A DNA stretch of 64,000 nucleotides from an uncultured Ruminococcus sp. Lineage in GTDB: Bacteria; Bacillota; Clostridia; Oscillospirales; CAG-272. Positions 1,686 to 7,412 of this stretch are shown here, piece by piece. Made by a program: the position numbers and the translations under genes. The DNA lies in assembly GCA_900551005.1 (NCBI GenBank), contig URUL01000001.1:246-64245 (forward strand), given 5' to 3'. The first letter of the stretch is position 1. Each line of letters starts with the position of its first letter. A model generated the notes under the pieces. The model did no database searches, had not been told where the DNA came from, and saw only the letters and a program-made list of their open reading frames with translations.

Positions 1686-1840
1686 TGTTTCCTTTCTGAA
1701 GCCGAGTACAAAAGAAAAGACCGTTTTGCCTTTCCTTCTGCAAAACGACCTCATAATTTGTTTTTATTTTTTGTTGATCTGAAAGCGGCACATCGTGAAT
1801 ACGCCCACGATGCCACCAACTAACAGACCGATGAAGAAGG

Positions 1841-2686
1841 TCAGCATAGCGTCATACCTTCCTCGTTGTGGTAGGCTGACTCCATGGCATCATCGCCAAG
1901 GCTTTGCACATAACCGTTGTAGTCATCCCAGGAATTACAGCGATGGATACCCCAAGCACGAATGCCGGCTTTTGCTTCTTCAAGTGAGCTCGTATCCTCG
2001 CCGTGAAGTCTGTCGAGTTCCAGCCACACCTTGCCGTTATTCTCGTCATAACAAAGGACAGCCGGATGACCGAGAGAAGCATCGCACTGAAAGGACGGCG
2101 ATACATGAACCCCCTCACAGTATTCGTAGTAGTTGCCGAGAAGGGATAGCACATAACCTGAAGCGGAGTTGATGTCAAATGACAGTTCAATCCCAATAAT
2201 ATCCGCGGCAAGCTCCTGCGCTACGGCAGTTCCTTCCTGTGGGGAATTGTCATCAATTAACTCTCCGGCGATAAAGGAGATCTCACCCACATTGTAACCG
2301 AGGTCTTCATCGGCATAACGAAGCTCAAATTCTACATCGGGGTATTTTTCGGACAGCTTGAAAAGGACACGAAACGGAGAACCGTTTGCCGTGAGGAATG
2401 TTATCGTACCGGTGTCACCGGAATAGGTGGGGGTTTCAAAGCCATAGGCGTTCCATTTGGTGTTCCAGTTTTTCATGCGCCAGTCGTACCAGTTGTTGTC
2501 CTTGTAGCGTTTCATTTCTTCGAGCCCGAGGTCTCCCATATATAGACCTTCGGGTTCGGGAATCAGTTTCCGGAAGTCGATTGAACCGAGTCCGGCTTCG
2601 TCGCTCTGAATATCCTTCAGAATCTCATGGAAACGGTCTTCCGTACAATGGTGAAAGTGCAATTCATTGGTTACATGGTTCGGCAT
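1841..2686 (-). CDS. Api92-like/DUF1281-like protein (conjugative-element associated)
   Basis: 281-aa ORF starting MPNHVTNELHF, similar to the MPNWCxN start I recall for DUF1281. It also has a W-rich NWYDWRMKNWNTKWN segment. Its first 23 nt overlap the dcm stop. The family assignment is from memory only. Confidence 0.5.
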   Translation of the reverse strand: MPNHVTNELHFHHCTEDRFHEILKDIQSDEAGLGSIDFRKLIPEPEGLYMGDLGLEEMKRYKDNNWYDWRMKNWNTKWNAYGFETPTYSGDTGTITFLTANGSPFRVLFKLSEKYPDVEFELRYADEDLGYNVGEISFIAGELIDDNSPQEGTAVAQELAADIIGIELSFDINSASGYVLSLLGNYYEYCEGVHVSPSFQCDASLGHPAVLCYDENNGKVWLELDRLHGEDTSSLEEAKAGIRAWGIHRCNSWDDYNGYVQSLGDDAMESAYHNEEGMTLC

Positions 2687-3956
2687 GATTATCTTCCTCC
2701 GTCGCTTTCCTTTCGTGAATTCGTTTGATCACTGCCCCGAGAGCCGTAATGACCGGAACGCTGACCGCATTACCTGCCATCTTATAGAGCCTTGCATCGG
2801 ATATTCCTGCTGATTGGGCTTTCAAAAACTGCTCGTCGGTAAATCCCTGCAAACGCCAGCACTCAATGGGCATGAGCTTGCGGATGCGGTCCTGCTCGGC
2901 AATCCCGTGTAGGTCTTGGGTTGTGAGTGTAAACATCGGTTCTTCCGGGTCTTTCATCCTTCTGCCTTGCTGACGAACGGTTTCCCGCTCAGGATTCAGA
3001 AAAGCGCACGGGCCATCTCCCGCCTTTTCCAAGACTCCGGAATGCTCACCCCGGCGGTTGCCGATCCCCGAATCCTGTCTTGCCGTAATGCAACGGGCAA
3101 GCTCTGTGATCTTGGGTTCAGGATTCATATCGATACAATAGACTCCCTGTGTACTGCTCGTAGTCAGCGTGTGGGCGATCTGTTTGCCGACACGTCCTCG
3201 TCTTGAATTGAGATTGGGATATGCCAGGTCAATACTGTCACCGGGTTCGGCCATCTGAAAGCCGGACTTGGTGAAGGATTTGATGGGAAGTTGTCCAACC
3301 GAATACAAGCCGGTGTTCCCGGCAAAACCTCCGGCACTGCTTGTCAGTGTACAGCTCAGTCCTTCTTGTCCGTAGATTCTGTCACCTTGTCTGCCGCCGA
3401 TCTTTTGAATAATAGTTTTTGGATTTGAATCGGTGAAAGATAATATCTCTCCGGGGCATTCTTCTCCAAGACAGCAGACAAGAAACACTCTTTTTCGGGA
3501 TTGGGGAACACCGAAATCTGCGCTGTTAAGAACCTGCCATGCGACATCGTACCCCAGTTCCGAAAGCGTACCGAGGATGGTCGCAAACGTCCTGCCGCTG
3601 TCGTGAGATAGCAGTCCGGGAACGTTTTCAAGGAGCAGATACTTAGGTCTTTTAACTCTGGCAATCCGAGCGATCTCAAAGAAAAGCGTTCCTCGGGCAT
3701 CTTCAAAGCCCCCTCGCTTTCCAGCGATTGAAAAGCTCTGACAAGGGAATCCGCCGCAAATAAGGTCGATATCCGGCAATTCTTCGGGGACGATCTTTCT
3801 TGCGTCTTCAAAAAATAGTTCTCCTTTCGTGTCATAGATTGCTTCATAGGCTTTCCGTGCGTAAGGATCGATCTCGCAAAAACCTACGGGGACAAAAAAA
3901 TCGCCGAACTTGGAGAGTCCTGATCTGAACCCACCAATGCCGGCGAACATGTCCAA
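2664..3956 (-). CDS. dcm: DNA cytosine-5 methyltransferase, orphan
   Basis: Canonical m5C motifs in order: I MFAGIGGF, IV GGFPCQSFS, VI ENVPGL, VIII QSRKRVF, X GNAVSVPV. A long variable (target-recognition) region lies between VIII and X. Confidence 0.9.
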   Translation of the reverse strand: MDMFAGIGGFRSGLSKFGDFFVPVGFCEIDPYARKAYEAIYDTKGELFFEDARKIVPEELPDIDLICGGFPCQSFSIAGKRGGFEDARGTLFFEIARIARVKRPKYLLLENVPGLLSHDSGRTFATILGTLSELGYDVAWQVLNSADFGVPQSRKRVFLVCCLGEECPGEILSFTDSNPKTIIQKIGGRQGDRIYGQEGLSCTLTSSAGGFAGNTGLYSVGQLPIKSFTKSGFQMAEPGDSIDLAYPNLNSRRGRVGKQIAHTLTTSSTQGVYCIDMNPEPKITELARCITARQDSGIGNRRGEHSGVLEKAGDGPCAFLNPERETVRQQGRRMKDPEEPMFTLTTQDLHGIAEQDRIRKLMPIECWRLQGFTDEQFLKAQSAGISDARLYKMAGNAVSVPVITALGAVIKRIHERKATEEDNHAEPCNQ

Positions 3957-3976
3957 ATATTTGATTTGATTATTAT

Positions 3977-4744
3977 TCAGAGGCTCATACCTCCGTTCTG
4001 CTCAAACGACTGTCCAGTAGCGGAGGAGATGATATCCCAAATGTCTTCGGGACAATCTGCCATATCTACGTGGATATCGCTCTCACAATTTACTGTGTAC
4101 CAGTATCGGTACGGTACCAGATTCTGCATGAAGGCTTTTTGGTCTTCTGTTTCTTCCGTTACACCGTGATCGATTACGCCTGTCGGTGTCATAACGCACG
4201 TACCCCAATGTTCTCCGGAGGAGTCCAAGTCAAGGGTTACAAGCGCAGGATAGTAGTCGCCTGTCTGCAGGGATTCTACGATGGCAGGTACTTGGATGAA
4301 ACCGACGAGACCATCGACACTGTCTGTGTCATAAATCTCAACGAACTTGTCGTGAAGCTGCCCCAAAATCTCGGTGGTGTAGCTGTCATTCGCATTCTCG
4401 ATTTCCTCGGCGAAGCGGTCAAGGTCTACATCCGCAAAGATATCTCGGTGAACGGCCTCGTAATACTTGTCGTAATTCCGTGCGCACTTTTCTTCGAGAA
4501 GCTCGGCTTGCGTTAAGGCTCTGTAATGATCCTCTCCGTATGCCAAACCGAGGCTTCTGCCGTTATCGAACCTGCAGAAGACGGTAGCAATGTCATCGAT
4601 TCCCTCAACCGTGCCTTTGGTTCCGGGCGGAATCGGACGTGGATCATCTCCCATACTGATGAGTTTGATGCGAGTGCCTATGGGATAGCGTTCTCGCAAG
4701 CTCTTTGCGATGTTGCTCAATTGGCTGAAGGAATATTCCATCAC
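3977..4744 (-). CDS. DUF4314-like domain protein (conjugative-element associated)
   Basis: 255-aa ORF. The N-terminal IGTRIKLISMGDDPRPIPPGTKGTVEGIDDIATVFCRFDNGRSLGL matches my recollection of the DUF4314 SH3-like module. The stop overlaps the next start (ATGA-type junction at 4741-4744). Confidence 0.6.
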   Translation of the reverse strand: MMEYSFSQLSNIAKSLRERYPIGTRIKLISMGDDPRPIPPGTKGTVEGIDDIATVFCRFDNGRSLGLAYGEDHYRALTQAELLEEKCARNYDKYYEAVHRDIFADVDLDRFAEEIENANDSYTTEILGQLHDKFVEIYDTDSVDGLVGFIQVPAIVESLQTGDYYPALVTLDLDSSGEHWGTCVMTPTGVIDHGVTEETEDQKAFMQNLVPYRYWYTVNCESDIHVDMADCPEDIWDIISSATGQSFEQNGGMSL

Positions 4745-5154
4745 ATACCTCCCATTTCCATGCCGCTATCAAAGCGATAGCCTTGGTCGGCATACATGGA
4801 GATATAGTCCTCAACCGTATCGGAGATAAGTTTGTAGTCATAAGCGGTCGGATGATAGATATACCAGTCAACTTTTTGACCGTCTTCCCAAATATGGGGT
4901 TCACGGTCACCCTTCATGCCGATGATATCGGAAAATTTGAAGGTTTCGCTGTCAACCGTACCTTCGTGGCGGTTGATGATGGTGAGTCGCAAGGCATCAT
5001 ACTTTGCGTGGGTATTCGTGTAGACGAATTGTACCTTGGCTCTTAAATCTTCACCGATGGGAGCAATCATTGTCTTACCTGCGAAAACCGCATCCTCCGA
5101 AATACATTCAGAATCGTCAAAGAGCCTGTGAAGCTCTTTTTCAAAAAAAGTCAA
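4741..5154 (-). CDS. Hypothetical protein (ICE cargo)
   Basis: ORF 4741..5274 trimmed to the TTG at 5154, which follows AAAGGAG (reverse complement of 5161-5170) and avoids a ~100-nt overlap with the upstream gene. The C-terminus is ...SGMEMGGM. Confidence 0.6.
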   Translation of the reverse strand: MTFFEKELHRLFDDSECISEDAVFAGKTMIAPIGEDLRAKVQFVYTNTHAKYDALRLTIINRHEGTVDSETFKFSDIIGMKGDREPHIWEDGQKVDWYIYHPTAYDYKLISDTVEDYISMYADQGYRFDSGMEMGGM

Positions 5155-5176
5155 TAATATGATCTCCTTTCTTCTC

Positions 5177-5443
5177 TTAATACAAATAACGGTCTTCAAA
5201 GCCTTCGCTTTTTCGAAGTTCTGCCATGAGCTCATCTCTGAATCGCATATCTGTGCATTCGTCGATCTCACCATTTTCGAATTCCAAAAGCGTAGTGCCG
5301 TCTGCTTCTGCGATATAACCGCAGTGTTGTGTATGAATGAAGTCAGCCACTTCTTTCATACTGTGGAGTTGTATGCCCTCGTCATAGAGTCCGATATGAC
5401 CGAGGAGCATGTCGTAATACATTTCTGTCACGCTCACCCCCAA
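5177..5443 (-). CDS. Hypothetical small protein (ICE cargo)
   Basis: 88-aa ORF in the same operon-like array. Its start overlaps the stop of the upstream ORF by 10 nt. No recognisable motif. Confidence 0.5.
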   Translation of the reverse strand: MGVSVTEMYYDMLLGHIGLYDEGIQLHSMKEVADFIHTQHCGYIAEADGTTLLEFENGEIDECTDMRFRDELMAELRKSEGFEDRYLY

Positions 5444-5778
5444 TCCATCCCGAAAAGTTCATCGGGAGAATAACTGCAGGTGAAGTCAACAGATTCAATG
5501 TGGTCGCAGTGACCGGAGAGGAACTTCTCGTCCTTCTGCATTCGGAGCAGGAAGTATGCCACTTCCTCGATGGATGCCTTGAATGTTTCACCTTCGCCGT
5601 AAAGATAGGCTTCAGCGTGTACGGTGATCTCGGTGTCTTCCTCAATGCTGTCGATGAAATCTTCGAACTTGGTGTAGTAATCGAAGTCTTCGAGCTCTCT
5701 CGGAATACCGCTGACGAGGAACTCCGCTTCGTTGCCATCGGGAGTTGAAACACGAACGTGGGAGAATAGAAGAGCCAT
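5434..5778 (-). CDS. Hypothetical protein (ICE cargo)
   Basis: 114-aa acidic ORF. Its ATG shares one nucleotide with the stop of the upstream gene at 5778. No recognisable motif. Confidence 0.55.
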   Translation of the reverse strand: MALLFSHVRVSTPDGNEAEFLVSGIPRELEDFDYYTKFEDFIDSIEEDTEITVHAEAYLYGEGETFKASIEEVAYFLLRMQKDEKFLSGHCDHIESVDFTCSYSPDELFGMDWG

Positions 5779-6650
5779 TACATCCCACCCATCGTCATGC
5801 CGTCCGACATGAGGCGATCCTCGAACTCGTCTTGGTTATCGATGAAATAATTATCATCGGGACTCCAAAGGCTCACGTACATGAAAGCACCCCGGTGTCC
5901 ACCCTCGAAGTAGATCTCTCTCTGCTCGAATCCTTCGCCAAGGCCGTCCGAGTTCTGTCCGGAGATCCAACTCTTCAGATCCTGTTCCTCGTCCTCTGTG
6001 AGGGGGCCTGCGGTCTGTACGGTGATGCATCCGTAAAGCTCGCCGTTTCTACGCTCGAAGCCCCATTCGGCTGACCGTAGCTTTTCGGACACACCATTGT
6101 TTCCATCGAAGTATTCAGCCATGTTGTTTTCATCAATGCTGTTATACTCCGCCAAACGCTGACGGATGACATCCTCATGTCGAGCTGCGAAGGTTGCATC
6201 TTCCTCGTAGCCGTCCTCATCAACTTCGCCCCAACTATTTGTTCCGTGAACCTGAATGGTAAGGGGACAATAGTATTTGGTTGTAACCGATTGAGGATAG
6301 GCTTCGGAAAGCATTCTGTCGAGTTGCTCATAGGAGGCAAGTCCTTCGACCTTGACGGTGTTCTCAAACTCTCGTCTGTTCTGATAGGGGAGGCTGTGCA
6401 TCAGAGCGATCGTGTCATTGAACGTGTGAAAGCGGAAGCCTGTGGGGATTGCTTTGGCGATGGCATTTTCTACAACACCACGGCAGTCGAGCGTGAACGA
6501 GAGACCTTGGTCGGATTCTTCATTGTATTTGATGTCGTAAGCACTTGCGTGATTTTTACCCAAATACGAGAGAGCACCTGCCAACTGTTTTCGATCTACT
6601 GGAAGCTGAACATGGGCTGTGTAGTCGCCGTTTGAAATAATTGCATTCAT
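5778..6650 (-). CDS. Hypothetical protein (ICE cargo), first gene of the visible array
   Basis: 290-aa ORF with the RBS AGAAAGGA 8 nt upstream of the ATG at 6650. The C-terminus is ...SDGMTMGGM. No family assigned with confidence. Confidence 0.65.
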   Translation of the reverse strand: MNAIISNGDYTAHVQLPVDRKQLAGALSYLGKNHASAYDIKYNEESDQGLSFTLDCRGVVENAIAKAIPTGFRFHTFNDTIALMHSLPYQNRREFENTVKVEGLASYEQLDRMLSEAYPQSVTTKYYCPLTIQVHGTNSWGEVDEDGYEEDATFAARHEDVIRQRLAEYNSIDENNMAEYFDGNNGVSEKLRSAEWGFERRNGELYGCITVQTAGPLTEDEEQDLKSWISGQNSDGLGEGFEQREIYFEGGHRGAFMYVSLWSPDDNYFIDNQDEFEDRLMSDGMTMGGM

Positions 6651-6747
6651 CTGTTATCATCCTTTCTGCAAATAAAAAAGCCAAACGCTTGGCTGATAAG
6701 CATTTGGCTATGTATGCAGAAGGCTTTTCTTCAGCAGTTCAATATTT

Positions 6748-7007
6748 GGTTTTCGTGAGTTCAAACCCTTCCGATAGAACAATGGACTGTTTTTGAAAAT
6801 TGTGTTATTCAAGGTTTCGTGGGTTCGGATCCTTTCGTAGAAGGAGGGGACTGATTTTGTAGTGCATGATTTGTAAACAATTTGTGTCTAACGCAAAAAA
6901 CCGAAAGAATTTGAAACCCTGTCGCGGGTTCAAGTCCTTTCGGTCGCTTGTTTTTGATGATAGCTTAAGGAAAAACGGCTCAATCCATAGTTCGTTCCTT
7001 TCGGCTC
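6748..7007 (+). repeat. Degenerate ~30-nt direct repeats with a tRNA T-loop-like core (GTTCRRAYCCTTYCG)
   Basis: R1 at 6748-6779 is GGTTTTCGTGAGTTCAAACCCTTCCGATAGAA. R2 at 6813-6842 is GGTTTCGTGGGTTCGGATCCTTTCGTAGAA. R3 at 6919-6947 is CTGTCGCGGGTTCAAGTCCTTTCGGTCGC. A partial copy lies at 6989-7007 (AGTTCGTTCCTTTCGGCTC). Aligned by eye. Confidence 0.6.
6900..6950. terminator. Long imperfect hairpin flanked by an A-run and a T-run (bidirectional terminator-like)
   Basis: The 5' arm ACCGAAAGAATTTGAAACCC (6900-6919) pairs with GGGTTCAAGTCCTTTCGGT (6926-6944), with one bulge and about two mismatches or wobbles. It is preceded by AAAAAA and followed by CGCTTGTTTTT. Confidence 0.5.
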
Positions 7008-7057
7008 AATGAAATACCGAAAATGGATCTATGAAACTTTGAAAAAAAGTAGGCGCG

Positions 7058-7090
7058 AAAAAACGGGAGAAATCTCTCGAAATCTCCCGT
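7058..7090 (-). terminator. Rho-independent terminator downstream of the tRNA genes
   Basis: The stem ACGGGAGA (7063-7070) pairs with TCTCCCGT (7083-7090). On the minus strand the hairpin is followed by TTTTTT (complement of the A-run at 7058-7063). Confidence 0.6.
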
Positions 7091-7133
7091 TTTCTCTTGT
7101 TTTCTCTTTCGGATCTTTTTTGACCGATAGACT

Positions 7134-7209
7134 TGGCAGGGGCAGTAAGAATCGAACTCACGACACGCGGTTTTGGAGACCGCTGCTCTACCTGCTGAGC
7201 TATACCCCT
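7134..7209 (-). tRNA. trnW: tRNA-Trp (anticodon CCA), CCA end encoded
   Basis: The reverse complement folds as a cloverleaf: AGGGGTA-TA-GCTC-AGCAGGTA-GAGC-A-GCGGT-CTCCAAA-ACCGC-GTGTC-GTGAG-TTCGATT-CTTAC-TGCCCCT-G-CCA. The anticodon loop CTCCAAA gives CCA. Confidence 0.9.
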
Positions 7210-7335: not shown

Positions 7336-7412
7336 TGGTGGGCCTTTAGGGACTCGAACCCCAGACCAACCGGTTATGAGCCGGTTGCTCTAACCAACTG
7401 AGCTAAAGGCCC
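7336..7412 (-). tRNA. tRNA with CAT anticodon (elongator Met or lysidine-modified Ile2), CCA end encoded
   Basis: Reverse complement: GGGCCTT-TA-GCTC-AGTTGGTTA-GAGC-A-ACCGG-CTCATAA-CCGGT-TGGTC-TGGGG-TTCGAGT-CCCTA-AAGGCCC-A-CCA. It is not an initiator: there is no C1:A72 mismatch and no triple G-C in the anticodon stem. Its overall look resembles tRNA-Ile2(CAU), but Met and Ile2 cannot be separated by eye. Confidence 0.85.

Follow-up and report, generated by a model that had tools for sequence, protein, structure and literature searches.

A short Gly-Met tail at the C-termini of unrelated Bacillota mobile-element proteins looks like a recognition motif of a transfer system

The first 6650 positions of a 64,000-nucleotide (nt) stretch of contig URUL01000001.1 from an uncultured Ruminococcus sp. 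(the whole stretch is hereafter called the window) hold a one-directional array of mobile-element genes on the minus strand. Two of the encoded proteins, g1 and g4, end in GMTMGGM and GMEMGGM, and both tails belong to a motif class that is large and real. On the sequence evidence, the class is an extreme C-terminal short linear motif, in which an acidic, predicted disordered linker of ~10–20 residues is followed by [Q/E/D]-G-M-x-M-G-G-[M/I/L] and 0–3 further residues, and it has been added to a wide range of unrelated proteins in one group of integrative conjugative and mobilizable elements of Bacillota, mainly in Oscillospiraceae and related Clostridia. The tail looks like a C-terminal recognition motif of a transfer system, one that is seemingly undescribed.

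A preliminary description of this DNA had reported five related Gly-Met-containing C-termini in the array (on g1, g2, g4, g5 and g7), attached to otherwise unrelated proteins. The five sequences were exact on re-reading. The bodies are indeed unrelated: they belong to different Pfam families or to none, and all-against-all BLAST without the tail keeps the tail-bearing families apart. Of 10 element proteins, 5 have GM among their 8 C-terminal residues, versus 3 of 189 other open reading frames (ORFs) of at least 80 amino acids (aa) in the window (Fisher p = 5e-6). The longer string MGG[MIL] occurs in the window only at the C-termini of g1 and g4 and at one internal site in the 57-kb chromosomal part. 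The count of five held in part, with g1 and g4 carrying the strict form, g5 and g7 being plausible degenerate members and g2 falling outside the class. Relatives of g2 end in ELFGIDWG or ELYGVELEL within a conserved domain terminus, SPDEL[FY]G[MIV]..., so its GMDWG is part of a conserved domain end and is not to be counted as a tail. The NGGMSL ending of g5 is a variant, with M changed to N, of QMGGM[ST]L[GE], which is common on other DUF4314 proteins, and because of this match g5 is probably a weakened member. The EEGMTLC ending of g7 is a possible member, at best degenerate; relatives of g7 end in EEGGMTMC, DEEGMTMC or ESGDMSLC, and its last codons are also constrained because the start of a 27-aa ORF overlaps them.

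We searched 185,579 species, each represented by a single genome, for the DNA pattern GGN ATG NNN ATG GGN GGN ATG followed by TRR. TRR is either a stop codon or TGG. The scan yielded at least 119 loci, at least 76 in Bacillota and at least 43 in others (high-GC phyla); tallies of these loci and their tails, here and below, are among the matches listed. The Bacillota loci belong mostly to Oscillospiraceae, Flavonifractor, Intestinimonas, Acutalibacteraceae and other Clostridia. Stop codons and TGG stood at 80:0 in the 76 Bacillota loci versus 25:18 in the 43 others (Fisher p = 3e-10), the latter split being as expected by chance. Without their last 10 residues, the Bacillota proteins sort into 15 or more groups lacking detectable similarity. 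Assigned by Pfam or NCBIfam, the carriers include MobL (NCBIfam MobP3) relaxases with Sel1 repeats, several ArdA architectures, LPD28, LPD28+Imm51, DUF3849, an ankyrin-repeat protein and DUF4314 proteins in 87-aa and 327-aa forms. The relaxases end in ...HEEEQNQGGMVMGGM and a further carrier, a 157-aa ribbon-helix-helix protein, in ...DETEDESEGFGMSMGGM. No Pfam or NCBIfam model covers the tail itself: g1 and g4 have no match at all, and the matches in other carriers stop before it.

The same 8-kb Bacillota loci hold ~47 more C-terminal MGG[MIL] tails that were not selected by the pattern, versus 1 internal occurrence. These extra tails include forms such as MGGMTLE, MGGMSLG, MGGMQL, MGGISQ, MGGLS and QMGGMA. 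Element arrays contain 3–6 such tails per 8 kb, and in the gene maps most non-enzyme genes bear the tail or a Met-rich variant (GMEMK, PVMSM, FDMQMT, GFTMGM); the secretion-machinery proteins of the arrays are without it. Within element loci, the tail is strongly enriched at C-termini. For the enrichment on elements over the chromosome that had been proposed for testing, the only chromosomal control is the 57-kb part of the window, which has no tails.

MGGM is the core of 95 out of 111 unique tails, with MGGI in 5, MGGL in 4 and IGGM in 3. The protein ends at the core in 82 of them and 1–3 residues later in the remainder. The three positions before the core are mostly G-M-x, a preference that is partly ascertained by the search pattern. 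E, D and Q dominate positions -12 to -4 relative to the core, ahead of the M-G-G-M tip, and the 20 residues before the core have a mean net charge of -3.9 and are negative in 93% of tails, compared with a mean of +0.5 and 34% negative for 1786 control ORFs of the same loci. The tail has low confidence in AlphaFold2 models of both g1 and a 652-aa relaxase. In the g1 model, the predicted local distance difference test (pLDDT) score is 92.4 overall and ~64 in the last block. Taking low model confidence as disorder, we predict that the tail region is disordered; an acidic linker combined with disorder is an anatomy typical of a docking motif.

Whether homologues keep the tail while adjacent residues vary had been put forward as a check, and distant members of both the g1 and g4 families do so. 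Around 105 of 120 close homologues of g1 carry the tail, nearly all as [GD]M[TAS]MGGM; these homologues are at least 75% identical, so their shared tail says little. An exhaustive HMMER search with g1 against 1.84 billion cluster representatives gave 1099 matches, and tails were counted on the best 149 of the 1099, each from a different 50%-identity cluster. Across the 42,718 residues of these 149 representatives, [MFILV]GG[MIL] falls no more than 4 residues from the C-terminus 51 times versus 5 internal occurrences. The motif is retained by 25 of the 42 full-length representatives, most of them at 26–45% identity, and ~10 more have degenerate Met-rich C-termini. In the g4 family, 15 of 21 diverse members retain MGG[MI] after a linker that is variable in length and sequence. 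This variable segment lies between the last conserved helix (...EDYISMYAD) and the tail, and relatives at 44–51% identity end in GMEMGGMNL, GMKMGGM, NMGGMTM or GMGGMSL.

We favour, tentatively and with slightly less than even confidence, a reading in which the conjugation coupling machinery of these elements recognizes the tail as a tag for recruitment or translocation. In the donor cell, one partner shared by the tagged proteins would bind the tag; the type IV coupling protein is the likeliest candidate, or else an adaptor attached to it. The tag would bring to the transfer channel the relaxase–DNA complex, accessory proteins of the relaxosome, and proteins of the anti-restriction or 'polyvalent-domain' kind. 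The tagged proteins would enter the recipient along with the DNA, and relaxases of mobilizable elements would bear the same tag to use the machinery of a helper element. We infer both the identity of this partner and the transfer into the recipient. Relaxases are canonical substrates of coupling proteins. Circumstantial evidence for conjugation comes from the sharing of the tail by MobL/MobP3 relaxases, ribbon-helix-helix proteins and ArdA/LPD-type proteins, and from the lack of a tail on distant g1-domain homologues encoded by contigs of jumbo-phage size. The preliminary proposal of a C-terminal recognition signal gains partial support: a conserved tail is shared, by fewer array proteins than had been counted.

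One tail-bearing MobL/MobP3 relaxase is encoded by a compact element (loci L128/L129) that also carries a sigma factor, helix-turn-helix proteins, an excisionase-like protein and an integrase. No transfer apparatus was present within ±10 kb of the relaxase gene, so the element looks like a mobilizable one that borrows the machinery of another. Its cargo is a complete type I restriction-modification system. Relatives of the g1 C-terminal domain also occur in 51 IMG/VR contigs. Some 30 of these relatives are distant, small and tail-less, and many of their contigs measure 130–500 kb, the size of jumbo phages. The ~13 closer ones lie on 'viral' contigs that hold the same kind of tail-bearing arrays and contain sortase, surface-protein, CAP and methylase genes. 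Six proteins scanned around two of these arrays included no phage hallmark (they were a sortase, CAP, Dcm, a type I methylase, a trypsin-like peptidase and one protein without a Pfam match), and the contigs tentatively look like conjugative elements that have been called viral.

Several observations weigh against a tag read by conjugation machinery. Some members of the g1 and g4 families have lost the tail, the orphan Dcm and Dam methyltransferases of the same arrays are without it, and so is a PF03432 relaxase adjoining the array in L124/L125. A walk along contigs from the Dam gene reached a Tad-like locus or a P-loop_TraG/AAA_10 ATPase and no typed coupling protein. No receptor for the tail was identified, the only candidate modelled being the Sel1 repeats of the relaxase, in cis. 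The statistics of the tail set carry some ascertainment bias from the search pattern. Type IV secretion signals known so far are compositional, usually positive or hydrophobic, with no fixed heptapeptide (PMC11288057), and the tail region, at -3.9, lacks the cluster of positive charge that marks the last 20–50 residues of VirB/D4- or F-type substrates.

The strongest competitor, which we consider rather unlikely, is that the tail docks to some other common partner without export: a host chaperone, a protease for which it would be a degron limiting the lifetime of establishment proteins, or an element-encoded scaffold assembling separate 'polyvalent' domains. The positional and conservation evidence fits docking of this kind equally well. 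Tails that bind hubs generally consist of a disordered acidic linker capped by a short hydrophobic tip, as in the C-terminal tip of SSB and the EEVD of Hsp70/Hsp90. We know of no degron that the tail resembles, which counts against the degron form. The same domains are found fused in polyvalent proteins (PMC5512222), and there is a superficial likeness to the (GGM)n tail of GroEL (PMC12571646). Non-export docking leaves unexplained why the tail is found on relaxases of mobilizable elements and why it is absent from the distant homologues on jumbo-phage-size contigs, and the one testable receptor candidate, the Sel1 repeats, gave no predicted docking in cis. As a cis receptor, these repeats were set aside as unsupported: residues 627–652 of the 652-aa relaxase had pLDDT values of 24–36, in a weak test with AlphaFold2 on a 120-sequence but shallow alignment.

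The Gly-Gly codons of the tail can double as the Shine–Dalgarno sequence of the next gene, a point that the preliminary description had missed. In g4, the GGAGG at 4748–4752 within the tail codons doubles as the Shine–Dalgarno sequence of g5, whose ATG (4741–4739) lies 6 nt downstream in a TGATG overlap. In g1, the codons read GGTGGG, and stop and following start share bases in TAATG (TAA of g1, ATG of the next gene). At a distance of 6–8 nt from an overlapping or abutting start codon, a GGAGG-type sequence is present in both strict tails of the window and in ~60% of those elsewhere. The tail might then be a by-product of translational coupling, with ATG-GGA-GGN-ATG-stop supplying the Shine–Dalgarno sequence and spacer of the next gene and the peptide having no function. 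Both strict tails of the window overlap a following start in this way, and GGAGG codons are tied to downstream genes. Among 103 unique tails, those with GGAGG codons have a downstream ORF within 12 nt in 62 cases and none in 7, most of the 7 being truncated loci with an obvious ATG; for non-GGAGG tails, the numbers are 12 and 22 (p = 2e-8). A spacing of 5–10 nt, as in embedded Shine–Dalgarno elements, is seen in g4, and 62 of 69 GGAGG tails have a nearby ORF. What separates the tail from such elements is that its peptide persists without a downstream gene. The 22 tails with neither GGAGG nor a nearby ORF retain the peptide with the codons GGC GGG, GGC GGT or GGC GGA, and synonymous Gly codon differences occur between members of this set. 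It comprises three relaxase subfamilies (with GGC GGG codons, then TGACCTCC...), the 157-aa ribbon-helix-helix protein, a 381-aa family and others. Retention of the peptide in non-Shine–Dalgarno codons, at sites with no gene behind them, shows selection on the peptide itself. Ribosome binding also fails to account for the upstream G-M-x-M and the acidic linker, or for variants such as MGGMTLE-stop that have no start codon behind them, and in g5 the GGAGG lies ~40 nt from the dcm start, too far to be usable as a ribosome-binding site. The choice of GGA-GGN when a gene is close behind is a secondary use of the same bases for that gene, and translational coupling as the sole cause is largely refuted and very improbable.

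Two further readings of these junctions were rejected. A conserved DNA cassette boundary or recombination site does not fit, since the DNA shows free variation both in the Gly codons and at the x positions. Programmed frameshifting that would generate fusion proteins was rejected on sequence, as the junctions lack a slippery site and a downstream gene is missing after many tails.

A shade less probable still is a processing or ligation site, at which a peptidase trims after Gly-Gly and the exposed Gly-Gly is joined to another molecule. Gly-Gly near the end resembles the C-termini of ubiquitin-like precursors, and in all tails among the matches listed only 1–4 residues follow Gly-Gly. Unlike ubiquitin-like precursors, the tails conserve the position behind Gly-Gly (M, I or L), and the carrier bodies are diverse and not of the beta-grasp type. 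No E1-like, JAB or C39 peptidase gene was found among annotated neighbours, for which no systematic search was made. Chance or compositional bias, as with some Met/Gly-rich repeat proteins from other phyla that fit the pattern, has next to no probability and is already refuted by the absence of TGG after the Bacillota tails and by their density in the arrays. By an estimate from typical residue frequencies, MGG[MIL] would be expected among the last few residues at a rate of ~1e-4 per protein. To explanations beyond those listed we leave a small but appreciable probability, greater than that of translational coupling and below that of non-export docking.

A different ending is found in Tn1549-like elements. 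Neither Tn1549 on pMG2200 (L268) nor a Vescimonas Tn1549-like element (L269) has MGGM tails; several of their proteins instead share a basic stretch followed by an [LQ]-E-[LV](E) ending. It is present on PcfB (...KERGLEL), the YodL polyvalent protein (...KSKGLEVE and ...RQALEME), a 314-aa protein (...KKNELEV and ...KDNDLEV), a Cys-rich protein (...PTHLEL), the Tn1549 relaxase (...KEWTQEL) and an inserted MobQ relaxase (...KHKQQDMEL). This ending may be a second, system-specific tail class, and a different shared ending in these elements is the pattern expected of system-specific tags. More broadly, it is conceivable, though we doubt it somewhat more than the coupling-machinery reading itself, that Gram-positive elements use short system-specific C-terminal address tags (the acidic GMxMGGM and the basic [LQ]-E-[LV]) to define the set of proteins admitted to the mating channel, and that a mobilizable element equips its own relaxase with a copy of the tag used by its helper. 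Among the relatives of g1, long ones that contain DUF3848 end in ...GRKKSGPEL or ...KRKSKDEEL, a related form (...RKKSxxEL), and related endings were noted among the proteins P0373, P0386, P0396, P0404 and P0441.

The features of the array are given in Table 1. The two tRNA genes adjoin the array, and beyond them lie the chromosomal genes recR, ybaB and dnaX.

Table 1. Array genes, C-terminal tails and adjoining tRNA genes of the window
Feature	Positions	Strand	Remarks
tRNA-Met	7336..7412		
tRNA-Trp	7134..7209		
g1, 290-aa protein	5778..6650	−	First array gene; two alpha/beta domains; ends ...SDGMTMGGM
g1 strict tail, G-M-T-M-G-G-M	5781..5801	−	GGC ATG ACG ATG GGT GGG ATG
g2, 114-aa protein	5434..5778	−	Ends ...ELFGMDWG; listed in the preliminary description, not a member of the tail class
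ORF of ~83 aa			Between g2 and g4 in minus-strand order
g4, 137-aa protein	4741..5154	−	TTG start; ends ...DSGMEMGGM
g4 strict tail, G-M-E-M-G-G-M	4744..4764	−	GGC ATG GAA ATG GGA GGT ATG
g5, 254-aa DUF4314 protein	3977..4741	−	Pfam PF14192, E = 1.8e-27; ends ...EQNGGMSL
g5 degenerate tail (probable), N-G-G-M-S-L	3980..3997	−	AAC GGA GGT ATG AGC CTC
Dcm methylase gene			After g5 in minus-strand order
g7, 281-aa protein	1841..2686	−	DUF1281_C (Api92-like ferredoxin-like) domain, PF18406, E = 7.9e-14; ends ...NEEGMTLC
g7 possible degenerate tail, E-E-G-M-T-L-C	1844..1864	−	Last codons overlap the start of the 27-aa ORF
Hydrophobic ORF, 27 aa, MLTFFIGLLVGGIVGVFTMCRFQINKK	1764..1847	−	Unannotated; ATG within the last g7 codons; outside the tail class
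Dam methylase, Cys-rich 84-aa protein, AbrB/PrlF-like protein			After g7 in minus-strand order
DUF3849 protein	starts at 287		C-terminus beyond the window edge

The 27-aa ORF is open in loci L124–L126, and in relatives at 56–67% identity an ATG or GTG start stands at the same place with a similar hydrophobic sequence after it. As it is open with such a start in relatives at 56–100% identity, MLTFFIGLLVGGIVGVFTMCRFQINKK is probably a real small membrane protein. Copies of the DUF3849 protein elsewhere end in ...TEDGGLKLE or EEGGLTLS. No PDB fold neighbour of the g1 model was found with Foldseek at E ≤ 1e-3. The C-terminal domain of g1 (GQNSDGLGEGFEQ ... YVSFWNSGDDYF) is widespread, the 1099 representative matches including small tail-less proteins on very large viral contigs. 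In the spacer between tRNA-Trp and g1 (6640–7140), three direct repeats of ~21 nt begin at 6753, 6817 and 6922, with a consensus of roughly TCGYGRGTTCRARYCCTTYCG; as they look by eye like fragments of a tRNA T-arm and 3' end, they could be attachment-site remnants of successive integrations. Among annotated plasmids and phages, the window element matched only dcm-like fragments and one unannotated Subdoligranulum record, and no database record was found for its 92-aa AbrB-like protein.

Where longer contigs carry copies of the array, DUF3849, YodL/DUF3846 and SpoVG come next. A Tad-like locus then follows, ~3–10 kb beyond the position of the left end of the window (L271/L272), with three DUF6133 proteins, a prepilin peptidase, RcpC, a T2SSE ATPase and DUF4320. 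In one array copy, a 506-aa protein and a 609-aa P-loop_TraG/AAA_10 ATPase (L271) stand in place of the Tad-like locus. A Tad-like apparatus in a Gram-positive conjugative element is unusual. The predicted 689-aa protein P0431 combines DUF4314, the g1 C-terminal domain and a T2SSE-type secretion ATPase, and is either a real fusion joining cargo domains to the Tad-like ATPase or an artefact of assembly or gene calling.

If the coupling-machinery reading is true, substrate recruitment and establishment-protein transfer in Gram-positive bacteria would become directly testable through a discrete heptapeptide. The transferred proteome of thousands of uncultured gut elements could be read from sequence, the tag could predict which mobilizable elements depend on which helpers, and a portable tag for protein delivery between Clostridia would be at hand. 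Even if the partner is not the coupling protein, a motif spread across at least 15 families would mark an unknown common step in element biology. To our knowledge, injection of establishment proteins with DNA has not been demonstrated in gut Firmicutes. It has been shown for F-type plasmids of Gram-negative bacteria (PMC8406263). A 2025 review of type IV secretion describes the experimental evidence on coupling-protein recruitment of Gram-positive relaxosomes as limited, and the searched passages mention no such tail (PMC12857230). No description of the tail was found in Pfam, NCBIfam or the literature searched, in which MGGM refers to GroEL tails or to unrelated matters; this is absence of evidence within those sources and no proof that the tail is unpublished.

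Compared with known C-terminal signals, the tail stands apart in several respects. It shares the terminal Gly-Gly of ubiquitin-like and double-glycine C-termini, without their beta-grasp body and, among the annotated neighbours (a non-exhaustive set), without E1-like, JAB or C39 partners. The transmembrane helix and basic tail of surface sorting signals (LPXTG, GlyGly-CTERM) are absent, the protein ending 0–3 residues after the motif; no N-terminal hydrophobic leader was evident in the carrier sequences read, on which no signal-peptide predictor was run. The (GGM)n-M tail of GroEL/Hsp60 is likewise a flexible extreme C-terminal segment, made of Gly and Met only (PMC12571646). It consists of at least 4 tandem GGM units facing the chaperonin cavity, whereas here a single GMxMGGM follows an acidic linker on mobile-element carriers, and the GroEL tail is a look-alike only. 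The polyvalent proteins of Iyer et al. 2017 (PMC5512222) have in common with the tail arrays the carrier families ArdA, LPD28, DUF4314 and DUF3849, with YodL among the neighbours, and these are the domain families predicted there to be delivered with DNA. In the arrays these are separate proteins sharing a tag instead of parts of one polypeptide chain, and a term search of that paper returned no mention of a C-terminal tail.

Closest to the tail are the C-terminal signals of type IV secretion, namely the Arg-rich tails of Agrobacterium VirB/D4 substrates, the E-block and hydrophobic C-terminus of Legionella Dot/Icm substrates, and the signals of F, pKM101 and RP4 substrates (PMC8406263, PMC11288057). 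The nearest design is that of Dot/Icm, in which a Glu-rich block ~10–17 residues from the end precedes a hydrophobic tip; both features are found here, as a resemblance in design and not as the sign of a type IVB system. Like these signals in general, the tail is disordered by prediction, lies at the extreme C-terminus and is common to unrelated proteins, including relaxases, amid anti-restriction gene neighbours. The known signals are loose patterns of charge and hydrophobicity, whereas the tail is a near-invariant heptapeptide in Gram-positive elements.

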